Positions 4,454-21,602 of a stretch of 27,180 nt of DNA are shown piece by piece (position 1 is the stretch's first letter; every line of letters begins with the position of its first letter). The position numbers and the translations under genes were made by a program. The DNA lies in the IMG/VR virus record IMGVR_UViG_2740892115_000003. One strand, written 5' to 3'. The notes beneath the pieces are model-generated. The model ran no database searches. It saw only the letters and a list, made by a program, of their open reading frames with translations, and had not been told where the DNA came from. The stretch comes from a virus (Duplodnaviria > Heunggongvirae > Uroviricota > Caudoviricetes).

Positions 4454-5005
4454 ATGAAACTCAAACCAATGGGTACACCTGGTGTGGCTCCGGCACATGT
4501 AAAACCATGGACACAGCAGGAGGATGAACTTTTAGCCACGTTATACCACTCCCACACAGCGCCGGAGCTGACAAAACACCTTCAGAGAACCGAGTCAGCA
4601 ATACGAAGTCGCATCCGTCTTTTGCTCTCTCAGGGGGTTATTCACGCCAAACGCCCCCACCTGAGCACAAAAGAACTCAGCATGCTCATCAGGAATCGCC
4701 ACACAAAAACTATCCGGGAACTCGCGAATGAGCTGGGGCGCTCGCCATCCACGGTGGAACTGAACCTGAGAAAAAGAGGGTATCGGTTCAGGAAATACGG
4801 GGAACTCCACCACAGAACCAGATACAGCGATCACCTGGTGGAGTTGGTAACTGAACTGCGTGATGAGAAGGGGATGACATTCAGCGAAATCAGGAAGCAC
4901 ATCCGGGACACAGCCGGGATATCCCTTAAAAGATGGGTTCCCGCCCGGCTTTACGCACGATATACCGCCGCTGACACCGTGCTTTGCGAACTGCTACCGG
5001 ACTGA
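4454..5005 (+). CDS. Putative DNA-binding protein with Myb/SANT-like and HTH-like segments
   Basis: 183 aa; AGGGAG RBS; PWTQQEDELLATLY...RTESAIRSRIRLL fits a Myb/SANT-like pattern, followed by IRELANELGRSPSTVELNLRKRG. Confidence 0.55.
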   Translation: MKLKPMGTPGVAPAHVKPWTQQEDELLATLYHSHTAPELTKHLQRTESAIRSRIRLLLSQGVIHAKRPHLSTKELSMLIRNRHTKTIRELANELGRSPSTVELNLRKRGYRFRKYGELHHRTRYSDHLVELVTELRDEKGMTFSEIRKHIRDTAGISLKRWVPARLYARYTAADTVLCELLPD

Positions 5006-5125
5006 GTAACCACTATGCACACACAAAAAAACCGCTTGCCATGCCGCAATCAGTCAGGTTACATTTTCGCTGCACCTCATAAAACGGGTGCCGGGTTTCG
5101 CAGCCTGCTGACAACCAAAGCGCAC

Positions 5126-5147
5126 AACCGCGCCAGCGGTTTTTTTG
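5126..5147 (+). terminator. Rho-independent terminator-like hairpin after the 4454-5005 gene
   Basis: Stem AACCGC (5126-5131), loop GCCA, stem GCGGTT (5136-5141), then a run of seven T (5140-5146). Confidence 0.5.
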
Positions 5148-5158
5148 TGCGTACTGTA

Positions 5159-5187
5159 TTGCCACGTTTTTTTCGCACACGAATTAT
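5159..5187 (+). promoter_or_regulatory. Candidate sigma70-type promoter immediately upstream of the structured element
   Basis: TTGCCA (5159-5164), 17-nt spacer, AATTAT (5182-5187); moderate match only. Confidence 0.3.
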
Positions 5188-5263
5188 GGCGGGGCGTACG
5201 GGGCCGACTTCGGTCGGGCCGGGTTCTTTGGTTGCCGGTACTGCGAACCCCGTACGTCTCGCC
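5188..5263 (+). ncRNA. Candidate structured RNA element (small RNA or structured 5' leader), strand-specific fold
   Basis: 16-bp closing helix 5188-5203 with 5248-5263 including two G-U pairs (only possible on the + strand RNA); inner hairpin CCGAC-TTCG-GTCGG (5204-5217); second inner stem GCCGG (5218-5222) with CCGGT (5235-5239). Confidence 0.3.
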
Positions 5264-6000: not shown

Positions 6001-8802
6001 ATGACGGCAGAGTACATCAGGGACTGGCAACAACCGCGCCACGCGGTGGGGCGTGAAGGAACGGGGATCCCCGCTCCTGAATCCGCGCTTTCCTCCTGGC
6101 TGGGCGCCTACCGGGTAGAGAACGAGCGCCGCCAGGAAATGGCTGATGCGGCGTTCTCCGCCACGCCGCTGGGCAACCTGATTAATAAAAGCTTGGACGC
6201 ACAGGAAAAACAGGACAAAACCATCACACTGGCAGGAGACGCCAGAAAACAGGCACGCGGCGCGGTGGATGAAGCCATGGCCTCGCTGCGCCTGCTGCCG
6301 TCCTATCTGCGCGATCCGCTTATTCGCCACCTCTCCTTCCTGCGCAAAAAACAGGAAGCCGATCGCCGGAAAGGCAAAAAGAGCTGGCAGGCGGAACGCT
6401 ATGCACGCGGAACCCTGCGCAAAATATTCGAACGTCTGGACCGCACCGATCACCGCTGGCTGACACCGGGTTATCGCTCCCTTGCTGGACGCGAACGCCT
6501 GGACGATTTGCTTTACCTGCCGCAGCTCAACAAACACCAGATACAGACGCTGGCCACCATGACGGCGGCGATGTTCAGCAGCACCTTCGAAAAACTCTGC
6601 GATGGCTTTGGCGCGACTGATGGCGAACTGACCATGGATGTAACGCTGAAGGCGTATCAGATGCTGGCCCGCATGGCGTTACACCTGCACGCCATGCCTC
6701 CACATTATGACTCACTGACAACAGACAAAGACCGGAGGAACGAACCGGACACAGAGCTGCTGCCGGGCGCAATCCTTCGCCTGACCTGTGCGGAATGGTG
6801 GAAACGCAAACTATGGCTGTTACGTTGCGAGTGGAGAGAAGAACAACTCCGCGCCGCCTGTCTGGTTTCCAGAAAAACATCGCCCTATCTGAGCCAGGAC
6901 GCGTTAAGCGAGTTTCGCGCACAGCGCGAGAAAACACGCGATTTCCTGAAAAGTTTCATGCTGGAAAACGAAGACGGGTTCACGATTGATCTCGAGACAG
7001 TGTATTACGCGGGAGTAAGTAACCCGGTTCACCGTAAGGCAGAAATGATGGCCACCATGAAGGGACTGGAACTTCTGGCCGAAGCCCGTGGCGACAGAGC
7101 GGTGTTTCTGACTGTCACCTGCCCGTCAAAATACCACGCAACAACGGAGAACGGTCATCCGAACCCCAAATGGAACGGGGCCACCATGCGCGACTCCAGC
7201 GATTACCTGGTTAACACGTTTTTTGCGGCGGTCCGCAAAAAACTGAACCGCGACGGCCTGCGCTGGTATGGCATCCGCACGGTGGAGCCTCACCATGACG
7301 GCACCGTGCACTGGCATATGATGGTCTTTGCTCATCCGGAAGAAATCGACAGCATCGTGGCCATCACCCGCGATATTGCCATTCAGGAAGACCGCCACGA
7401 GCTGGGCAATGATATTACTCCGCGCTTTAAAGTGGAGTATGTCGACGGCTCAAAAGGCACACCAACCAGCTATATCGCGACCTACATCGGGAAAAACCTG
7501 GACAGCCGCGCCGTGGATGGCATCGACCCGAAAACGGGCAAACCACGCGTTGACCACGAAACCGGAAAATCAATGGCCGAGAGCGTGGAGCGCGCCATCG
7601 GTTGGGCACGCCTTCACCGGGTCCGCCAGTTCCAGTTCTTTGGCATCCCCTCCCGTCAGGTGTGGCGTGAACTCCGCCGCCTTGCCAGCCAGATGGCACG
7701 CAACCCGGAAGGCCCGCAACGGCTGAAGGATGACGCAATGGATGCGGTACTCGCTGCCGCTGATGCCGGATGTTTTGCCACCTACATAGAGAAACAGGGC
7801 GGCGTACTTGTTCCACGCAAAGACTACCTGATTCGCACCGCCTACGACCTCGCCGATGAGCTGAACGATTACGGCGAACAGAGTGTACAGATTTACGGGA
7901 TCTGGTCACCACTCATCGGGGAATCCTCCCGTGTGTGCACGCACCCGGATAACTGGAAGCTGGTAAGACGTAAACCGGAACAGGAAGGCAGCGCCCACGA
8001 AAATGGTTTTGACCTTCAGGGCGGCCCTGCCGCCCCTTGGACTCGTGGCAATAACTGTCCCCGTGTACAGGAAACGGACAACAACGGGACAGAACAGCCG
8101 GAAGAACGGCCAGCACCGTGGCCGCAGCTTCCTGACGGCGTTGACGTGAACGAATGGATGCGCTCACTGAAACGGCACGAACGCCGGGCGCTGATGCATT
8201 CGCTGCGTGACAAACAGGCAAAAAACAGCAGTGATGAAATGCAGAGCTGGACACAGAGCCGCAAACAGCAGCGGCCTTTGCCTGATAACCACGAATTACT
8301 CGCTAAAGAATGGCGGGAGTCTGCCGAATCTCTCGGCCTGCATATCGGTGAACAGCAGATGCAGCACCTGTTACGGGGCGGCAGTCTGTACGTTGACGGC
8401 AGCATCATTGCACCGCAGGGATTTGAAATTGTACGCAAACCGGATACCCGACCGGACAGCCGGATCACGCAGCTCTGGCAGCGCCTGAGCCGTAACCACG
8501 GCGTAAGCAGTACGGAGATCCGCCATAACCCGGTCGCCAGCTATCTGGAACAGCTGAGGGCATCAGACCCCGAAGCCGCCGCACGCCTGGCATCCACACT
8601 TCAGCAAGACCAGAACACCATGAAAACACCCGTTACCGTGCTTTCTGACATGCTGCGCGCCATCCGCGACGCAGAGCACGCACAGAGAATCAGTGAAACC
8701 ACTGAACGCGCCCGCCGCAAAGCAGACCTGCTGCGGGGTGGCCTGACCAGTGGAAACAAAAAACAGACAGAAACGGGATTTCAGAATCCCGTAAACGATT
8801 AA
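6001..8802 (+). CDS. A: Replication initiation endonuclease, P2 A-like (rolling-circle initiator)
   Basis: 933-aa ORF; central region carries the HUH-type metal motif VEPHHDGTVHWHMMVF and the catalytic tyrosine motif YIATYIGKN, as in the P2/186 A family. Confidence 0.9.
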   Translation: MTAEYIRDWQQPRHAVGREGTGIPAPESALSSWLGAYRVENERRQEMADAAFSATPLGNLINKSLDAQEKQDKTITLAGDARKQARGAVDEAMASLRLLPSYLRDPLIRHLSFLRKKQEADRRKGKKSWQAERYARGTLRKIFERLDRTDHRWLTPGYRSLAGRERLDDLLYLPQLNKHQIQTLATMTAAMFSSTFEKLCDGFGATDGELTMDVTLKAYQMLARMALHLHAMPPHYDSLTTDKDRRNEPDTELLPGAILRLTCAEWWKRKLWLLRCEWREEQLRAACLVSRKTSPYLSQDALSEFRAQREKTRDFLKSFMLENEDGFTIDLETVYYAGVSNPVHRKAEMMATMKGLELLAEARGDRAVFLTVTCPSKYHATTENGHPNPKWNGATMRDSSDYLVNTFFAAVRKKLNRDGLRWYGIRTVEPHHDGTVHWHMMVFAHPEEIDSIVAITRDIAIQEDRHELGNDITPRFKVEYVDGSKGTPTSYIATYIGKNLDSRAVDGIDPKTGKPRVDHETGKSMAESVERAIGWARLHRVRQFQFFGIPSRQVWRELRRLASQMARNPEGPQRLKDDAMDAVLAAADAGCFATYIEKQGGVLVPRKDYLIRTAYDLADELNDYGEQSVQIYGIWSPLIGESSRVCTHPDNWKLVRRKPEQEGSAHENGFDLQGGPAAPWTRGNNCPRVQETDNNGTEQPEERPAPWPQLPDGVDVNEWMRSLKRHERRALMHSLRDKQAKNSSDEMQSWTQSRKQQRPLPDNHELLAKEWRESAESLGLHIGEQQMQHLLRGGSLYVDGSIIAPQGFEIVRKPDTRPDSRITQLWQRLSRNHGVSSTEIRHNPVASYLEQLRASDPEAAARLASTLQQDQNTMKTPVTVLSDMLRAIRDAEHAQRISETTERARRKADLLRGGLTSGNKKQTETGFQNPVND

Positions 8803-8826
8803 TTAATCAACATAAGGAAAAGCGAC

Positions 8827-9786
8827 ATGAAAATTTGTATCGATGACGGCTCCACCAACATCAAGCTGGCATGGACTGAGAACGGCGAACGCCGCAACGC
8901 CATCAGCCCGAACAGCTTCAAGTCGGAATGGTCTGCGCCGTTCGGTGGCACGCAGCCCGCGAACTACATGCTTGATGGCGTGCGCTATGGTTTTGATCCG
9001 GTCAGCGATCGCTTTGTCCAGACGACTGACACGCAATACCAGTACAGCGATGTGAATGTCATTGCCATTCATCACGCGTTGGTCAAATCAGGCATCACGC
9101 CACAGGAGGTGGATGTGGTTGTCACCCTGCCACTGAGCGAGTATTTCGACACAAACGCACAGCCGGACATAGCCAACATCAACCGCAAAAAAGCGAACGT
9201 TATGCGCCCGGTGGAGTACCAGAACGGCGAAGCATTCACTATCCGTAACGTACGGGTTATGCCTGAATCCATTCCGGCTGGCTTTAAGGCACTGGCTGAC
9301 ATGAGTCCGTTTGAATCCCTGCTGATTGTGGATTTAGGCGGAACCACGCTGGATGTGGCAAAGGTTCAGGGACAACTGGCAGGTATCAGCCAGGTGTTTT
9401 GCGATCCACACGTAGGCGTTTCCCTGATGGCCGATGCCGTACTGTCGGTGATGGCCACTAACGGTATGCGTACCAGTCACCACATCGCCAATACCATTAT
9501 CGAACATCGCCATGATGAAGCCTGGCTGCGCCAGCACATCCACAATGACGCGCATTACGCCAGCCTGATGGCGGTTATTCGTGAAAAGGAAGAAACACTG
9601 AAACAACGCGTGATCCGCGCGCTGGCGGGTTTTTCGGGTTACGGGCGGGTGATGGTTGTCGGTGGAGGGGCGGAGATTGTGGCACCCGCTATCCGCGAAG
9701 CCTGCGGAGTTAATGCGACTTTCATCGCGGACGGGGTGCCACAGTTTGCTCTGGTTAATGGGCTGTACGCAATGGACAAGGAGTAA
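8827..9786 (+). CDS. parM: Actin-like segregation ATPase, ParM/StbA family
   Basis: 319 aa; N-terminal MKICIDDGSTNIKL and LIVDLGGTTLDV phosphate-binding motifs, ESIPAG, MVVGGGAE, and C-terminal LVNGLYA follow plasmid R1 ParM along the whole length (from memory); AAGGAAAAG RBS. Confidence 0.85.
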   Translation: MKICIDDGSTNIKLAWTENGERRNAISPNSFKSEWSAPFGGTQPANYMLDGVRYGFDPVSDRFVQTTDTQYQYSDVNVIAIHHALVKSGITPQEVDVVVTLPLSEYFDTNAQPDIANINRKKANVMRPVEYQNGEAFTIRNVRVMPESIPAGFKALADMSPFESLLIVDLGGTTLDVAKVQGQLAGISQVFCDPHVGVSLMADAVLSVMATNGMRTSHHIANTIIEHRHDEAWLRQHIHNDAHYASLMAVIREKEETLKQRVIRALAGFSGYGRVMVVGGGAEIVAPAIREACGVNATFIADGVPQFALVNGLYAMDKE

Positions 9787-9790
9787 ACCA

Positions 9791-10102
9791 ATGACGACAC
9801 CAACCAGACGGATAAGTTTCTATCTGAAGCCTGCGGCCGTCAAGAACGAAAGCGAAGCATGCGCCTGGCTGGACAGCCTTACACCAGAAGCCCGCAAAAG
9901 CGGCCAACGCGTGGCTTTTCTGGCCGGGCTGGCACTACTGAAAATGAATCCGGCAGAGGCTTACCGACTGGCTGCATGGGCTGATGATGAGGCATTATCA
10001 GTGACACAAACCAGGACAGAACGCCCCGCGTCACAGCCAGTATCAGCCGCACAGATAACCAGTCAGATGGCCGGAAATATCCGGGCGTTATTTCCCGAAT
10101 AA
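9791..10102 (+). CDS. parR: ParR-like DNA-binding adaptor (ribbon-helix-helix N-terminus)
   Basis: ATG at 9791 with AAGGAG SD, 4 nt after the parM stop; N-terminal RRISFYLKPA...LDSLTPEARKSGQRVAFLAGLALL parallels R1 ParR. The ORF-track start at 9656 lies inside parM and is rejected. Confidence 0.65.
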   Translation: MTTPTRRISFYLKPAAVKNESEACAWLDSLTPEARKSGQRVAFLAGLALLKMNPAEAYRLAAWADDEALSVTQTRTERPASQPVSAAQITSQMAGNIRALFPE

Positions 10103-10107
10103 CACAA

Positions 10108-10131
10108 CATCAGGGCGCATCCGCCCTGATG
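10108..10131. repeat. Perfect 10-bp inverted repeat with 4-nt loop just after the parR-like stop
   Basis: CATCAGGGCG-CATC-CGCCCTGATG; no T-run follows on the + strand, so it is not a canonical intrinsic terminator. Confidence 0.6.
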
Positions 10132-10165
10132 ACTTTAACCCGGGAGCATAAACAAGGGGGACACA

Positions 10166-10501
10166 ATGCAACACATTGACAGAGAAAAAGCGCAGCGACT
10201 GATTGAGCGGATGGAAGCGCTGGCGAAAGAAGAAAATGTCAACATCCAAAAAATAGCTGAATGTGGCCAGATAGTTCTTCGTCGTGAAAAAGACCTCAAA
10301 CAACTGATGTCTGGCGAAACCAGCAAAACATGGACTTCAGGCGAGAAGACGGTTTATTGCAGTTTCTGCAATAAATCCCAGTACGAAGTCACAAAGGTGA
10401 TTGCCGGACCGTCTGTTTACATCTGCAATGAGTGCGTGGATTTGTGCAATGAAATTATCAGGAAAGAAGTGACAGACCATGAAGAAAAAACGCATGAATG
10501 A
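10166..10501 (+). CDS. Small protein with C-terminal ClpX-type C4 zinc-binding domain (ClpX N-domain-like)
   Basis: 111 aa; AAGGGGG RBS; residues [39 protein letters not shown] nearly duplicate the E. coli ClpX N-terminus ([39 protein letters not shown], from memory), all four Cys retained; about 65 aa of helical N-terminus precede it. Confidence 0.8.
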
Positions 10502-10667
10502 CGAATTTGACGGCTTTTAATTTTATCGGGGCGCACTGTCGCCCTGCATGGAGAAAAACAATAAAAAAGATGAATAACTGCTCATGTCAGACGCGCTGCG
10601 GGCAAGTCTGGCACCCTGCCCTGTTTCCGCAAAGGCTGTTGTCTTAACACGACAGAGTATGCCAGCA

Positions 10668-11075
10668 TTAAATATAATCTTCTTCGTAGTCGCTGATTAA
10701 TTCATTGCCATAATCAGACAGCAATTTCAAAGCAAAGGTAACTTCCTCAAGGGTAGCTATCCCCATTGCTGAAAACACCGTTAATTTAACCAGCAGCAGG
10801 GAGTTTGAAAGTTCGGAAGAGTTCATCATTAAAAATATTGATGCAGCCTGAAAAGCTGTGCGTTTATTCCCATCATGAAAGGCATGAGCCTTGGCTATAC
10901 CAATCAAATACATAGCAGCCAGAGCATGAATATCATCAACCCCTTCATAGTAGTGTAGTGTCCTGACGCGATTTAAAGCACCTTCAAGTAGCCCGTCATT
11001 GGCATTTCCGCTCTGGGGTAAAGTTTCAGCATGGATACGTTCTACTTGTTCTTTTGACAAAAACACTATGTCCAT
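10668..11075 (-). CDS. doc: Doc-family toxin (Fic fold)
   Basis: 135 aa; motif HAFHDGNKRTA fits the Fic/Doc signature Hx(F)x(D/N)(G/A)NKR; start ATG overlaps the upstream antitoxin stop (ATGA). Confidence 0.85.
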   Translation of the reverse strand: MDIVFLSKEQVERIHAETLPQSGNANDGLLEGALNRVRTLHYYEGVDDIHALAAMYLIGIAKAHAFHDGNKRTAFQAASIFLMMNSSELSNSLLLVKLTVFSAMGIATLEEVTFALKLLSDYGNELISDYEEDYI

Positions 11076-11431
11076 CAGTTATCCTCAAGCTTTTTAATGA
11101 TATCCGCATGTTTTTCTCTTGTACGCTTCATTGCATCTTCAAAAGACAATCCTTTTTTTCTCTGTGCGACAAGAGCTGGATGACGTTTTTCCAGATCTCT
11201 CACTGCATTTATTAAGAGTGGTTGCTTCATTTTGTTTATTTGATCCCGCAGTTTTTTGGTTTTGCCAAGGACAGCCCGTATTTCAGGACTAAGATCAGAA
11301 CCAGCAAGAACAACATCCTTCCCTCCCTGCGCAGTGATAACGACACTGCCACCGGAAGAAAGGTAATCCAGAATTTCACTCAGGTTCTCACGAAATTCAT
11401 CATCAGTTACAGTTTTCATATTCATTTCCAT
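11075..11431 (-). CDS. phd: Phd/YefM-type antitoxin
   Basis: Directly upstream of and overlapping doc; N-terminal KTVTDDEFRENLSEILDYLSSGGSVVIT is Phd/YefM-like. Three in-frame ATGs (11431, 11425, 11419); exact start uncertain. Confidence 0.7.
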   Translation of the reverse strand: MEMNMKTVTDDEFRENLSEILDYLSSGGSVVITAQGGKDVVLAGSDLSPEIRAVLGKTKKLRDQINKMKQPLLINAVRDLEKRHPALVAQRKKGLSFEDAMKRTREKHADIIKKLEDN

Positions 11432-11627
11432 TATGCACGCCCATAACGTAAGTATAACGGCTTGTTGGGCAGTAATAACACCGCCATATTTTCATTTTAT
11501 ACACCGCACAATAGTGCACAAATTTGCACAATTTTTTTGAACAACTTTTTACCCTTCCGGCCCGCGTGGCGACTGGATCCGTCAGGGATCCGTGCGTGCA
11601 CAAAAAAACGCGTTTTTTCTGCGCGCA

Positions 11628-11646
11628 GGTGACGGGGGAACAGCCC
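11628..11646. other. Candidate cos (cohesive end) site
   Basis: GGTGACGGGGGAACAGCCC resembles the P2 19-nt cohesive end GGCGAGGCGGGGAAAGCAC (recalled, not searched); lies in the 520-bp non-coding region downstream of portal Q, where P2-type cos is expected. Confidence 0.25.
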
Positions 11647-11955
11647 GCGTTTCAGGGGGTAAATAGCATTCCCTGAACGATGTCGCAGAGATACAACAGA
11701 ATGGCTGTATTTCTCACGCTGAGCGTGAAAAATACGTGAGGGATTCTGATTTGATGGGGTGAAAGGTAAGGCCGTCAAAATCGCACTGAGGCGGCGAGAA
11801 CATGCAGTCAACGCGGTAGGATTGCGTAAGAGTCTGACCGTCGATGATGGCAATAAGCAGGAAAGCGTCGTGAAATTATCTGATTGATACAGGAGCTGGA
11901 GAGTCGGGGCATAAATTTTTTATGCCCCGGCGAAGCAGCAGACAAGCGAAGCGCG

Positions 11956-13002
11956 TCAGGATGTGGGCTGGGTGTCTAACAGTGCGTAAGGGTTAAAGCG
12001 GATCACCTCTTCGCCGAGCCAGTCATTGATGTGCTTCATGGCCTCCATGACGGGCATCAGCTCGTTAATTGCGTAAACCCGCGCGGCCTTCTCCACATCA
12101 CCAAACGCACTTTTTTCGCCTGGCATCGCCCCCATCAGTTGCGGCGGAACGCGGTGCGCAGCCAGCACATCATCACGGGATGCCGCCTTAACATTCATGA
12201 ACTCATCCTTTGCAGTGATCTGCTGGAACGGCAAAATTTGCACACCTTCTTTGCCCCCGTTGGGCGCATGGATGAGCACGTTTTTAAACGCACCACCGCC
12301 ACGCGCGCCCTGTAACGTTTCTTTCAGGGAGTCCATGCTTTCGCGGTTTACCTGCGCTGCGCCGATGTAGATGATACACCCGGCGTGGGATCCGTTGTCG
12401 TAATACAGTTTTCTGAACATGTCCGCCGAATGAGACAGGCTGGCCGAGAGTAATGCGCCAAGATATTCCGGCATGCCGTAGATTTCCTGGTTAATATCCG
12501 GATTCATCAGGTGGCACACTTTGCCAGGGCGAAACTGGAACGCGTCCTTGCCATCCTGCACATACCACCATGATTCAAGATCGCTTCCGCGTCGCATGTA
12601 TTTCGCCAGGGCGTGCCGTAATTTAAGCGGTTCGCCGAGCATATTGCTTCGAAGCTCAAGGAATGCGTTACCGAACACAAACCAGTCCAGCGCCAGCGCC
12701 GAGAAATCCTGCCGGGAAAGCAGCGGGTGCGGAATATAGCAGCCGAGCAATACATTGCGCTTAAAGTAAAGCGCAGACTGATGCCAGGACGTTTGCCGGG
12801 CAGCTCTTGCCAGACCGTACCAGTCCACCGGGGTTTCATACCACCGCCCGTTATCAGCACAGTACATATTATCCAGCAGGTCATGCCCGGTCAGGCGATA
12901 AGGACCATCAAATGTGAATGCACTGAGCGACGATTCTTTCCTGAGCGCATCAGCGAGATCAATGCGTGAACTCATGCGCACTTTTTTATTTTTTCTGCTC
13001 AT
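11956..13002 (-). CDS. Q: Portal protein, P2 Q-like
   Basis: 348-aa minus-strand ORF directly downstream of and overlapping (ATGA) the terminase ATPase gene; position and size fit P2 Q. Confidence 0.85.
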   Translation of the reverse strand: MSRKNKKVRMSSRIDLADALRKESSLSAFTFDGPYRLTGHDLLDNMYCADNGRWYETPVDWYGLARAARQTSWHQSALYFKRNVLLGCYIPHPLLSRQDFSALALDWFVFGNAFLELRSNMLGEPLKLRHALAKYMRRGSDLESWWYVQDGKDAFQFRPGKVCHLMNPDINQEIYGMPEYLGALLSASLSHSADMFRKLYYDNGSHAGCIIYIGAAQVNRESMDSLKETLQGARGGGAFKNVLIHAPNGGKEGVQILPFQQITAKDEFMNVKAASRDDVLAAHRVPPQLMGAMPGEKSAFGDVEKAARVYAINELMPVMEAMKHINDWLGEEVIRFNPYALLDTQPTS

Positions 13003-19583: not shown

Positions 19584-19725
19584 CCCACCCACATGGGGAA
19601 ACCTCGGAATATGGGGCGACCGCCTTCTGGATGCACTGGAAACCTGTAACGCGGATAAACGGGCCATTGCTGAACTGGATAAGAGAATAGCCGAACTGAC
19701 ACACCAGACGGGAGTAACACAATGA
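19414..19725 (+). CDS. o-spanin (Rz1/LysC-like outer-membrane lipoprotein)
   Basis: GTG at 19414 with GGAGAGG RBS; signal peptide ending in lipobox LLTGC; Pro-rich; overlaps the i-spanin in another frame. Confidence 0.65.
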   Translation: MNSYATILQKMNAPTLCLTLVLLTGCAGTQNAPGPAPSVRLIPQTLTMPVTPPPFPDPPTWGNLGIWGDRLLDALETCNADKRAIAELDKRIAELTHQTGVTQ

Positions 19726-21602
19726 CCAGTAAGAACTTTGCACTGATTACAGCCATGACACAGGCTGAACTGACTCAAAAGGTGAATGAACATCTTGCGA
19801 AAGGGTGGCATCTTCAGGGGGAGACGCGGGTTGCCTACGAACCCGGCACCCCGTGGTATCTAATGCAGGCAATGGTGGCCGATGGCACTACAGACATCTC
19901 ACCTGATTCCCCCCAGCACGGCAGCGTGCCGGAGTGGTATTACGTGGTGGTACTTGCTGGTCAATCCAATGCCATGTCATATGGTGATGGAATGCCGCTG
20001 CCGGATTCTTACGATGCGCCCCACCCACGCATTAAGCAACTGGCCCGTCGCAACACAGTGACTCCCGGTGGTAAAGCATGCGCATTTAACGACATCATTC
20101 CGGCAGACCACTGCCTGCATGATGTTCAGGATATGAGCGCACTGAATCATCCGAAGGCAGACCTGAGCAAAGGGCAGTACGGCTGTGTCGGCCAGGGCTT
20201 ACATATTGCCAAAAAACTGCTTCCGTATATCCCGAATAACGCGGGGATCCTGCTGGTACCATGCTGTCGTGGTGGTTCGGCATTCACCCAGGGCGCGGAG
20301 GGGACATTCAGTGCGGACACGGGGGCCAGCCAGGATTCGGCGCGCTGGGGTGCGGGTAAGCCGTTATATCAGGACCTGATCGCACGCACCAAAGCGGCAT
20401 TACAGAAGAACCCGAAAAATGTGTTGCTGGCGGTGTGCTGGATGCAGGGCGAATTTGACATGAGCGCTGCCACCTACGCACAGCAACCGGACCTGTTCAC
20501 GGCCATGCTGAAGCAGTTCCGTACTGACCTTTCCGGATTTAACGCGCAGTGCCATGGCGGCAGTGCTGCAGTTGTACCGTGGATTTGTGGCGACACGACG
20601 TATTACTGGAAAAACACATACGGCACACAGTATGACTCCGTCTACGGCGCGTACAAAAACAGGGAGAGCGACAACGTTTTCTTTGTGCCGTTCATGACCG
20701 ACGGTAACGGCAACAACACGCCCACCAACTTACCGGCAGAAGACCCGGATATTGCTGATGCAGGTTATTACGGCGCGCAATCCCGTAGTAATGGTAATTG
20801 GGTATCGTCAAATCGTCCGACACATTTCAGTTCATGGGCGCGCAGGGGCATTATTTCGGATCGCCTGGCAACCGCTATTCTGAACGCAGTTGGTCGAACC
20901 AGCGCCTTCATCAGCGGTACCGCACCGGAGATTAAACCCTCGCCCGGCGGCGACACGCCATCGGGGCCGTCTGATGGTGACACATCCGTTCGTACAGTCT
21001 CCCTGCTGCCGACAGCCGGAGAGGCTGCTGCGCAGGGCTGGACCATCACCGGCGGCAGTGTTGCGCTGGAAGATGGTGTGTTTAAGGTTACCAAGCAGAG
21101 CAATAAAACCTGGTCCCTGATGCATCCGGTGGATGACGCAGTCTCCCTGCTGACACGGGGTGGCAGACTGAGCTGTAAGTTTCGACTGTCAGGCGCACTG
21201 ACCAACAACCAGTTCGGTCTGGGAATTTATCTGTATACCGATGTAGCGTTACCTGACGTCGTGGCGATGACCGGGACTGGTAACCCGTTCCTGATGTCGT
21301 TCTTCACCCAGACCACAGACGGCAAACTGAATCTGATGCATCACAAGAAAGCCGGAAACACAAAGTTGGGCGAGTTCGGGAATTACAGTAACGACTGGCA
21401 GACGCTGGAGCTGGTGTTCACCGCCGGCAGTGCCACGGTTACTCCGAAACTGAATGGAGTGGCTGGCCCGGCATTCCAGGTCATAAAAGACAGTCTGACA
21501 CTGGGGCTGAATGCGCTGACGTTAACTGATATCACTAAAAATGCCGCGTACGGCGTCGATATCGGTAGCCTGGTGCTGGAAATCAATAATCCCGCAGCAT
21601 AA
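19722..21602 (+). CDS. Prophage NanS-p-like sialate O-acetylesterase (SGNH/SASA domain plus C-terminal beta-rich domain)
   Basis: 626 aa; N-terminal domain MTSKNFALITAMTQAELTQKVNEHLAKGWHL; esterase motif VVVLAGQSNAMSYGDG (catalytic Ser in GQSN); architecture and length match the NanS-p esterases of E. coli Stx prophages. Confidence 0.75.
   Translation: MTSKNFALITAMTQAELTQKVNEHLAKGWHLQGETRVAYEPGTPWYLMQAMVADGTTDISPDSPQHGSVPEWYYVVVLAGQSNAMSYGDGMPLPDSYDAPHPRIKQLARRNTVTPGGKACAFNDIIPADHCLHDVQDMSALNHPKADLSKGQYGCVGQGLHIAKKLLPYIPNNAGILLVPCCRGGSAFTQGAEGTFSADTGASQDSARWGAGKPLYQDLIARTKAALQKNPKNVLLAVCWMQGEFDMSAATYAQQPDLFTAMLKQFRTDLSGFNAQCHGGSAAVVPWICGDTTYYWKNTYGTQYDSVYGAYKNRESDNVFFVPFMTDGNGNNTPTNLPAEDPDIADAGYYGAQSRSNGNWVSSNRPTHFSSWARRGIISDRLATAILNAVGRTSAFISGTAPEIKPSPGGDTPSGPSDGDTSVRTVSLLPTAGEAAAQGWTITGGSVALEDGVFKVTKQSNKTWSLMHPVDDAVSLLTRGGRLSCKFRLSGALTNNQFGLGIYLYTDVALPDVVAMTGTGNPFLMSFFTQTTDGKLNLMHHKKAGNTKLGEFGNYSNDWQTLELVFTAGSATVTPKLNGVAGPAFQVIKDSLTLGLNALTLTDITKNAAYGVDIGSLVLEINNPAA

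Follow-up and report, generated by a model that had tools for sequence, protein, structure and literature searches.

In P2-like phages, replication gene A and portal gene Q flank a variable hotspot that adjoins cos and in which validated defence systems are enriched (Rousset et al. 2022, PMC9122126). P2 itself carries tin/old there, and a partition system is found "in around a fourth of P2-like phages" (PMC9122126). The locus described here lies in the same gpA-gpQ interval by cos, at positions 8803-11955 of the window (the whole 27,180-nucleotide stretch of DNA that was analysed), in an E. coli prophage of the P2 family classed as P88-like (Xuanwuvirus), and it shows a like turnover of cargo. 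It differs from the surveyed hotspot in that its cargo is absent from the systems cloned or tested in that survey, and in that its parMR pair behaves like a lineage-level fixture, unlike fast-turnover cargo.

An earlier note on this DNA had placed five genes at the tin/old position, and that placement is correct, the flanks being gene A, which forms the hotspot's left anchor, and portal gene Q on the right, both outside the cargo. All five open reading frames are present in the place and orientation claimed for them: parM, parR and ZF (encoding a stand-alone ClpX N-domain protein) on the + strand, doc and phd on the - strand. Profile and structure searches of the five proteins bear out the ParM, ParR, ClpX-zinc-domain, Doc and Phd calls. 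The boundaries needed adjustment at the starts of ParR, corrected to 9791, and Phd, corrected to 11419; and of the cargo extent claimed, 8803-11955, the gene part stands, whereas the final 450 bases (11506-11955) are conserved non-coding cos-proximal DNA (Table 1).

Table 1. Features of the A-Q interval and its flanks, in window coordinates.
Feature	Position	Strand	Description
Replication endonuclease gene A	6001..8802	+	933 aa; PF05840 Phage_GPA 1.7e-130; RefSeq 'replication endonuclease'
parM	8827..9786	+	319 aa; R1-type actin-like segregation ATPase; Pfam StbA_N 3.6e-82, ParM C-terminal domain 1.3e-68
parR/stbB-type adaptor	9791..10102	+	103 aa; PF10784 Plasmid_stab_B 1.6e-24; phrog_2515 'partition protein' 5.3e-57; RefSeq start
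Perfect palindrome	10108..10131		10-bp stem, CATCAGGGCG-CATC-CGCCCTGATG, just 3' of parR stop
ZF	10166..10501	+	111 aa; PF06689 zf-C4_ClpX 7e-18, residues 64-99
ZF 3' spacer	10502..10642		short GC hairpin at ~10527-10546; accompanies free-standing ZF form
doc	10668..11075	-	135 aa Doc-type Fic-fold toxin; Fic 3.5e-11; TIGR01550 DOC_P1 53.6 bits (cut-off 38.65)
phd	11075..11419	-	114 aa Phd/YefM-type antitoxin; RefSeq start; PF02604 29.2 bits (cut-off 29.8); phrog_375 4e-5
Presumed phd-doc promoter/operator, right end of toxin-antitoxin cassette	11420..11505	-	putative TTATTA, 16 nt, TATACT
Conserved non-coding cos-proximal region, hotspot right anchor	11506..11955		91-97% conserved whatever the cargo, with or without parMR
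Portal gene Q	11956..13002	-	RefSeq 'phage portal protein'; PF04860 seen in related loci

We conclude, with a probability of roughly 0.7, that the island consists of three independent modules, parMR, ZF and phd-doc, stacked side by side in a known cos-proximal hotspot. The claim that the five genes form an undescribed composite system is not upheld: the modules occur independently, and the same domain arrangement is already listed in Table S5A of Rousset et al. 2022 (PMC9122126). Of 5,426 complete E. coli genomes, 1,307 have parMR, 112 have ZF and 20 have phd-doc, while all five genes occur together in 18. The survey of synteny proposed in the earlier note, which had named independent occurrence without conserved linkage as grounds for abandoning its reading, largely returned just that; across lineages the components are found separately, with no conserved co-occurrence beyond a recurrent adjacency of ZF and phd-doc. 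As a composite system the island has little importance, being ordinary mosaic cargo in an already surveyed hotspot.

The modules also differ in composition and history. GC content is 55% in parMR, 43.5% in the ZF gene and 42% in the toxin-antitoxin (TA) block (40% in doc), and the TA block is 99.6-100% identical across loci whose parMR, ZF and cos flanks diverge by 2-5%. The stretch from parR to cos is either empty or filled with at least seven alternative contents. Homology to a locus with ZF and other cargo breaks at 10498 and returns at 11506, and such break-points set the cassette edge at 11505/11506. In another locus (L030) the crossover lies within ZF, at the start of its half encoding the zinc-binding domain (ZBD), after which 91.5% homology to the window runs from 10349 to 12100. 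A deletion derivative, found in UPEC132 and related strains, has lost parM, parR and ZF and retains phd-doc. The modules would adjoin because of their fixed docking positions, ZF as the last gene of the early operon and phd-doc beside cos; cargo would also be exchanged by homologous recombination, with the conserved half of ZF that codes for the ZBD as left anchor and cos-Q as right anchor.

The partition module resembles ParMRC of plasmid R1. Its ParM aligns with R1 ParM over the full length (PDB 1MWK, E 9e-93), and a ParR/StbB-type gene of the PF10784 family lies directly downstream, after a gap of 4 bases; ParR has no sequence relative among solved structures. The P88-like parMR differs from that of R1 in residing in an integrating phage, where parM starts 24 bases past the gene A stop, in showing no upstream promoter or parC region, and in having copies that are nearly all chromosomal. 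Near parMR we found no iteron array that could mark a parC centromere, only the single palindrome at 10108-10131. It is likely that parM-parR, fixed in the P88 lineage, is transcribed by read-through from the early A operon. The most likely role of ParMR is to position or segregate phage DNA outside the chromosome, either genomes in replication or an episome that exists transiently, ahead of integration or following excision. By analogy, AlpAC of the Corynebacterium prophage CGP3, which is likewise a prophage-encoded actin-like filament with a DNA-binding adaptor, is a plausible working model for ParMR of the P88-like prophage; AlpC, however, belongs to another, distant actin-like family and another host. 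About one quarter of complete E. coli genomes hold an R1-type ParMR within an integrating P2-family prophage.

ZF is the sole uncharacterised part of the island. Preceded by a strong ribosome-binding site (AAGGGGGA), it encodes a protein in which a helical hairpin at the N-terminus (residues 6-48) is joined through a disordered linker (52-59) to a C4 zinc-binding domain (62-110). ZF matches residues 7-51 of E. coli ClpX (PDB 1OVX/2DS5) with an E-value of 5e-20, and in its AlphaFold model (mean pLDDT 79.8) the zinc-binding domain is 78% identical to 2DS5 and superposes on it at 0.7 A. The four cysteines of the ClpX N-terminal ZBD are shared, as are the pocket residues F16 and I46, conserved in ZF as F67 and I97; in ClpX these two are needed for the binding region that trigger factor, lambda O, SspB and RssB have in common (PMC7804408). 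ZF differs from ClpX by a helical hairpin of ~45 residues and by the absence of the AAA+ module, as matches to ClpX models span only positions 3-53 and reach 50 bits where the cut-off is ~360-370; lacking this module, ZF is not a ClpX. The hairpin has only 11 matches in 1.84 billion representative proteins, almost all of them short proteins or fragments of the ZF family.

The ZF gene is inserted between parR and a gene of the 'hyp104' family, the latter lying directly 3' of parR in a ZF-less phage. In both Salmonella and E. coli, homologues with 45-54% identity occur in P2-like hotspots, with neither parMR nor a TA pair, and further homologues lie on D6-like phage-plasmids; many phages outside these two groups also encode stand-alone ZBD proteins of this kind. 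A free docking domain of ClpX is encoded repeatedly by temperate phages, and in the literature searched we found no description of a phage-encoded free ClpX ZBD. We suggest that ZF is a single-gene insertion that would close the early operon, a free ClpX zinc-binding domain joined to a helical hairpin that is specific to the family, and that it most likely mimics the docking domain of ClpX. It could titrate ZBD-dependent adaptors or substrates, or pair with the ClpX ZBD, and so alter degradation by ClpXP. A precedent is Gp53 of phage SPO1, a small phage protein that behaves as an adaptor for a Clp unfoldase, in that case within ClpCP (PMC6873191), although Gp53 is unrelated in sequence to ZF, acts in another host and targets ClpC. 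If ZF does retune ClpXP, it would represent a new kind of host-takeover or counter-defence factor.

The third module shares with P1 Phd-Doc the Doc fold and the motif H-x-F-x-D-G/A-N-K-R, the fold of the Phd N-domain, and a gene order in which the antitoxin comes first and the genes overlap, here by one base between the phd stop and the doc start codon. Doc matches P1 Doc (PDB 3K33) with an E-value of 6e-13, HAFHDGNKRTA aligning with HIFNDANKRTA. The PF02604 score of the antitoxin falls just below the cut-off, its TIGR score is likewise just short of its own, and phmmer finds no sequence match between it and P1 Phd; in the AlphaFold model its N-domain superposes on P1 Phd (4ZLX) at 0.9 A over 41 columns (TM 0.81) and matches 3HS2 with an E-value of 3.6e-4. 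The 114-residue protein has a long C-terminal half predicted to be helical, whereas P1 Phd chains in the PDB have ~73 residues. A strict consensus scan called no phd-doc promoter at 11420-11505.

Also in distinction to P1 Phd-Doc, the subfamily found here is specific to P2-like hotspots of Enterobacterales. It occurs by cos (Doc 81-87% identical) in Serratia, Edwardsiella, Raoultella, Citrobacter, Symbiopectobacterium and two further lineages, all of them ZF-less, and has long been resident at the cos-proximal end of P2-like phages in this order. In the island we read phd-doc as a type II toxin-antitoxin cassette of ~0.85-1.0 kb and low GC content, probably with its own promoter and recently spread into the site. 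Doc would stop translation unless neutralised by labile Phd, and the pair would serve as abortive-infection or stabilisation cargo, like other hotspot toxin-antitoxin pairs.

Could ZF nonetheless act on its neighbour? The earlier note proposed that ZF gates Phd turnover, and in its strong form this makes ZF and Phd-Doc a functional unit, in which a free ClpX docking domain governs how ClpXP turns Phd over and thereby whether Doc becomes active; ZF expressed from the early lytic operon could for example keep Phd stable and the phage's own toxin untriggered during phage growth. P1 Phd is a ClpXP substrate according to Lehnherr & Yarmolinsky (1995), as cited in PMC4963847, and the close identity of the ZF and ClpX ZBDs, pocket included, is consistent with such a role. 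So is the direct adjacency of ZF and phd-doc in four allele combinations: the window type; L026, with ZF 93% and Phd 64% identical and parMR absent; L030, with a different N-terminal half of ZF; and the distant phage L073 (A 37%, ZF 36% and Doc 58% identical), whose genes come in another order, with a decayed parR between ZF and phd-doc. Against base rates of ~2-8% for ZF and ~1% for phd-doc, four adjacencies are more than expected by chance if the cases are independent, an estimate that ignores shared descent. Yet phd-doc is missing from 94 of the 112 E. coli genomes that carry ZF and from 27 of 31 IMG/VR loci with ZF, and phd-doc is retained without ZF in the deletion derivative and at least seven other P2-like lineages; elsewhere, 80 Doc-family loci in species-representative genomes all lack a ZF gene within 6 kb. 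The age of the TA cassette also differs from that of ZF, and recombination with its anchor points in ZF and cos-Q can account for the adjacencies seen in E. coli. Of the gating proposal, then, adjacency is borne out and required linkage is not, since each partner persists without the other, and we consider a functional unit of ZF and Phd-Doc quite unlikely. Because the adjacency recurs in four allele combinations, the L073 one in a distant phage, an optional interaction is possible: ZF might be a decoy or ZBD-pairing partner that retunes host ClpXP and, in phages that carry phd-doc, also buffers Phd turnover and so keeps the toxin silent while the phage grows lytically, a tentative proposal that we regard as somewhat improbable.

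ParMR and Phd-Doc are classic plasmid-stability modules, and the presence of both a partition and an addiction module raises the alternative that the island is a plasmid-style maintenance kit holding the prophage as a stable episome. An episomal state has been speculated on in two papers, Rousset et al. among them (PMC9122126), and in L073 a parR remnant stands alongside ZF and phd-doc. The circular record pZ1323PEC0009-2 (34,461 bp) amounts to an entire P88-like genome, int and parMR included, and lends weak support to the episomal option raised in the earlier note, though it could be excised, replicating phage DNA. Against this single 34.5-kb circle, all but two of the 1,455 parMR copies in complete E. 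coli genomes (1,453) lie in the chromosome, and the window's own copy is integrated beside pdxB with its integrase intact. Only 20 of the 1,307 genomes with parMR carry phd-doc, and no parC iterons were found, which also speaks against such a kit; we judge it very unlikely. Less likely still is a single new anti-phage defence system made up of all five genes. The wealth of validated defence systems in the A-Q hotspot (PMC9122126) favours it, as do weak matches of the Fic/Doc domains to the PADLOC candidates PDC-S23 and PDC-M59B (7e-6 to 6e-4). However, PADLOC has no model for ParM, ParR or ZF, and its search of the island gave no match to a known system, Doc alone showing those weak Fic-domain matches to candidate families. 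The three modules are inherited separately, parMR is lineage-wide and was left out of the defence class by the authors of the hotspot survey (PMC9122126), and Phd-Doc acting by itself as abortive-infection cargo already falls within the modular explanation; we regard a five-gene defence system as highly improbable, and favour the three stacked modules.

Several non-coding elements punctuate the locus. The palindrome at 10108-10131 has no T-run downstream on the + strand and no other exact copy in the window; judged from its sequence, it could form an RNA hairpin or bind a protein. Around the ZF 3' spacer, L019, which has the ZF gene and no phd-doc, is 81% identical to the window over 10349-10642, and L026 shares 10149-10548 at 95.8%. 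The right anchor opens with three GCACAA repeats (tandem repeat 11506-11532) at 10 bp spacing and a terminator-like hairpin, and the same repeats are present in a relative without parMR.

The window is a P2-family prophage with 100% identity to E. coli chromosome NZ_OZ039818.1, in which the prophage adjoins pdxB and the integrase lies at the window start; among isolated phages, P88 (Xuanwuvirus, Peduoviridae) and PhiR44_2 come closest. The interval between replication gene A and portal gene Q lies next to cos and is a diversity hotspot of P2-like phages, occupied by tin/old in P2 (Rousset et al., 2022; PMC9122126), as the earlier note had placed it. A six-frame ORF list gives exactly five ORFs in this interval, and together with family matches confirms the genes, places and orientations of that note, although three bounds had to be redrawn: ParR starts at 9791, Phd starts at 11419, and 11506-11955 is non-coding. 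A 49-aa ORF at 10498-10647 was not counted as a gene; it does not resemble hyp104, which in other phages overlaps the gene for the ClpX-like zinc protein (ZF). Tool results establish the family assignments of the five proteins; for ParMR, ZF and Phd-Doc we infer functions. At the exact right boundary of the hotspot lie three copies of GCACAA at 10-bp spacing, overlapping a terminator-like hairpin at 11506-11535 and kept whatever the cargo, with or without parMR.

Features of the A-Q interval and its flanking genes (window coordinates)
Feature	Coordinates	Strand	Basis or position
Replication gene A	6001-8802	+	left flank of A-Q interval
ParM	8827-9786	+	Pfam 3.6e-82, 1.3e-68; full-length alignment to R1 ParM, E 9e-93
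ParR/StbB-type	9791-10102	+	PF10784 1.6e-24
ZF, 111 aa	10166-10501	+	PF06689 7e-18; PDB 1OVX/2DS5, E 5e-20
Doc	10668-11075	-	TIGR01550 above cut-off; P1 Doc, E 6e-13
Phd-like antitoxin	11075-11419	-	borderline sequence scores; AlphaFold N-domain resembles P1 Phd DNA-binding domain
Non-coding conserved stretch	11506-11955		right end of A-Q interval
Portal gene Q	11956-13002	-	right flank of A-Q interval

The five genes fall into three modules, each with a history of its own. With megablast sensitivity, a census of 5,426 complete E. coli genomes found parM-parR in 1,307, ZF in 112, phd-doc in 20, and the whole interval in 18. Across a spread sample of 60 hotspots A-parM-parR was invariant, and the position 3' of parR was empty or held hypothetical genes, ead/Ea22-like genes, DUF4760, HTH plus PIN, ZF with varied followers, or ZF plus phd-doc. 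Alignment to a locus carrying ZF with other cargo stops at 10498 and restarts at 11506; across loci, the intervening block keeps 99.6-100% identity, whereas their parMR, ZF and cos flanks diverge by 2-5%. This near-identity beside diverged flanks, together with a GC content of 42% (55% in parMR), marks the phd-doc cassette as a young, foreign insertion. ZF (43.5% GC), too, is an insertion, since a hyp104-family gene directly follows parR in one phage lacking ZF and follows ZF elsewhere. In a deletion derivative (UPEC132 and related strains), window 8877-10528 is gone, and with it the whole of parR and ZF and the greater part of parM; an identical phd-doc is retained. The earlier note had taken the five genes for an undescribed composite system; with modules that occur apart, histories that differ and an arrangement that is already catalogued (Rousset et al., 2022), that reading is not supported, and the locus is an assembly of known kinds of module in a described hotspot.

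Alternative cargo at the hotspot is itself varied. Members of the hyp104 family (L003 9330-9644 and L021 24434-24841, in other P2-like hotspots) lie 3' of parR or ZF and have no Pfam match; their N-terminal 55 residues are conserved (MNRKQKQELKYFLRK...) and their C-terminal halves unrelated, a pattern suggestive of a polymorphic protein whose C-terminal modules can be exchanged. At L003 9647-10138 an alternative cargo gene ("XF1762 family") has a weak Mom-family match (9.7e-5, below cut-off), and its product may have a DNA-modification or anti-restriction function.

Conserved linkage, on which the earlier note had made its composite system depend, largely fails in the synteny survey, where the modules occur independently in other lineages. 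ZF homologues from Salmonella (45% identity) and E. coli (54%) occupy P2-like A-Q hotspots that have neither parMR nor phd-doc; full-length relatives (hairpin plus zinc-binding domain, ZBD; 48-51% identity) occur in D6-like and ~108-kb phage or phage-plasmid records (comparison locus L022, 5776-6138; phage D6, NC_050154.1, 78798-79082), and shorter stand-alone ZBD ORFs in many unrelated phages, including those of Pseudomonas, Caulobacter and faecal metagenomes. Likewise, the phd-doc subfamily (Doc 81-87%, Phd 53-68% identity) sits at the cos-proximal end, oriented as in the window, in P2-like prophages of Serratia, Edwardsiella, Raoultella, Citrobacter youngae, Ca. Symbiopectobacterium and two further lineages, all without ZF and without parMR. 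Scanning one genome per species gave 80 Doc-family loci, with no ClpX-type zinc-domain ORF within 6 kb of any of them, and among 31 P88-type ZF loci in IMG/VR phd-doc is present in four and absent from 27.

A single-origin accident, our initial reading of why ZF and phd-doc lie together, was given up because the two adjoin directly in three more allele combinations. L026, which lacks parMR, has ZF, Doc and Phd at 93%, 86% and 64% identity to the window. In L030 the ZF gene (4917-5249) is chimeric: its N-terminal half belongs with the 54%-identity type, while the locus is homologous to the window without a break from 10349 to 12100 (91.5%), from the ZBD half of ZF rightward; this half-and-half match places a crossover inside ZF, at the start of the conserved ZBD-coding half. 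The ZBD of the L030 protein has unusual substitutions (AGQSVCICDECVEVC). In L073, a distantly related P2-like phage (A 37%, Q 31%, ZF 36% identity), A is followed by a small ORF, then by doc and phd, which lie on the opposite strand, then by a decayed parR and lastly by ZF. Its parR remnant (4730-4927) is 40% identical to residues 37-102, has an in-frame stop and ends in ...FFPE (ParR ...LFPE), which implies an old parR-ZF adjacency and a cassette insertion that removed parM.

These neighbours, counted with the window and with no adjustment for shared descent, keep an optional ZF-Phd interaction alive as a minority reading, which we consider unlikely. Against it, recombination and fixed gene positions can account for the E. 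coli adjacencies: cargo would be exchanged between a left anchor in the ZBD-coding half of ZF plus spacer and a right anchor in cos-Q, with ZF always the last early-operon gene and phd-doc always beside cos. L019, a comparison locus without the cassette, shares window 10349-10642. The E. coli cases can thus be explained without function; the adjacency in L073 is harder to dismiss.

In layout the cassette is a canonical antitoxin-toxin pair with overlapping genes, and it leaves room for a promoter of its own. The Doc motif HAFHDGNKRTA aligns with HIFNDANKRTA of P1 Doc, and the N-domain of Phd, as modelled by AlphaFold, fits the DNA-binding domain of P1 Phd at 0.9 Å. P1 Doc arrests translation upon loss of Phd, and by this likeness the Doc of the window would do the same. 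P1 Phd is degraded by ClpXP (cited in PMC4963847); the Phd of the window is longer than that of P1. By analogy, phd-doc in this hotspot is most plausibly abortive-infection or stabilisation cargo. PADLOC returned only weak Fic hits for the five proteins, and we identified no plasmid source of the cassette, the nearest plasmid-borne Doc being only 56% identical (Arsenophonus).

The part of the island that most merits follow-up is ZF, a stand-alone ClpX docking domain; the role of ParMR in an integrating phage comes second. Residues 58-102 of ZF align to residues 7-51 of E. coli ClpX, and in its AlphaFold model a helical hairpin spans residues 6-48 and is joined through a disordered linker to a ZBD, which superposes on that of E. 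coli at 0.7 Å with 78% identity. The ZBD of ClpX forms dimers. Its hydrophobic-pocket residues F16 and I46 are conserved as F67 and I97 in ZF, and trigger factor, lambda O, SspB and RssB all use the region of this pocket (PMC7804408). As a free ZBD, ZF could compete for these ligands or pair with the ClpX ZBD. Among 1.84 billion representative proteins the hairpin had 11 matches, nearly all short proteins or fragments of the ZF family and none offering a functional clue; judged by sequence, it is restricted to that family. Foldseek matches came from the ZBD part only, and the literature searched contained nothing relevant on phage-encoded stand-alone ClpX ZBDs.

Because parM lies 24 bases 3' of A, with no promoter-like site in front in a consensus scan, parMR is probably read from the early operon. 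The A proteins of phages with parMR are longer (933-940 aa) than those of the P2-like relatives without it that were sampled with ZF homologues (763-838 aa), the extra C-terminal part ending 24 bases before parM. No parC iteron array near parMR emerged from repeat searches (direct and inverted), Tandem Repeats Finder or a mismatch-tolerant k-mer scan, and a palindrome at 10108-10131 has no other exact copies in the window; the set of three GCACAA copies (11506-11532) was rejected as parC, being kept also in a relative without parMR. In complete E. coli genomes 1,453 of 1,455 parMR copies are chromosomal. P88 has been flagged as a possible phage-plasmid (Pfeifer et al., 2021). As the best working model, we infer that ParMR would position or segregate extrachromosomal phage DNA, either as it replicates or in a transient episomal phase, a role demonstrated for AlpAC, the actin-like pair of prophage CGP3 (PMC4446434). 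The circular "plasmid" pZ1323PEC0009-2 (L021; NZ_CP148288.1; 34,461 bp) comprises an entire P88-like phage genome, in which integrase, cox, A, parMR and structural genes are all present, and may represent either a true episome or phage DNA that was excised and is replicating.

Between the lysis and tail genes lies a 626-aa ORF (19722-21602, +) with DUF1737 (3.3e-7), SASA sialate O-acetylesterase (5e-13) and DUF6645 (2.2e-19) domains. We take this ORF of a P2-family late region to resemble the esterase morons of NanS-p type found in Stx lambdoid prophages.
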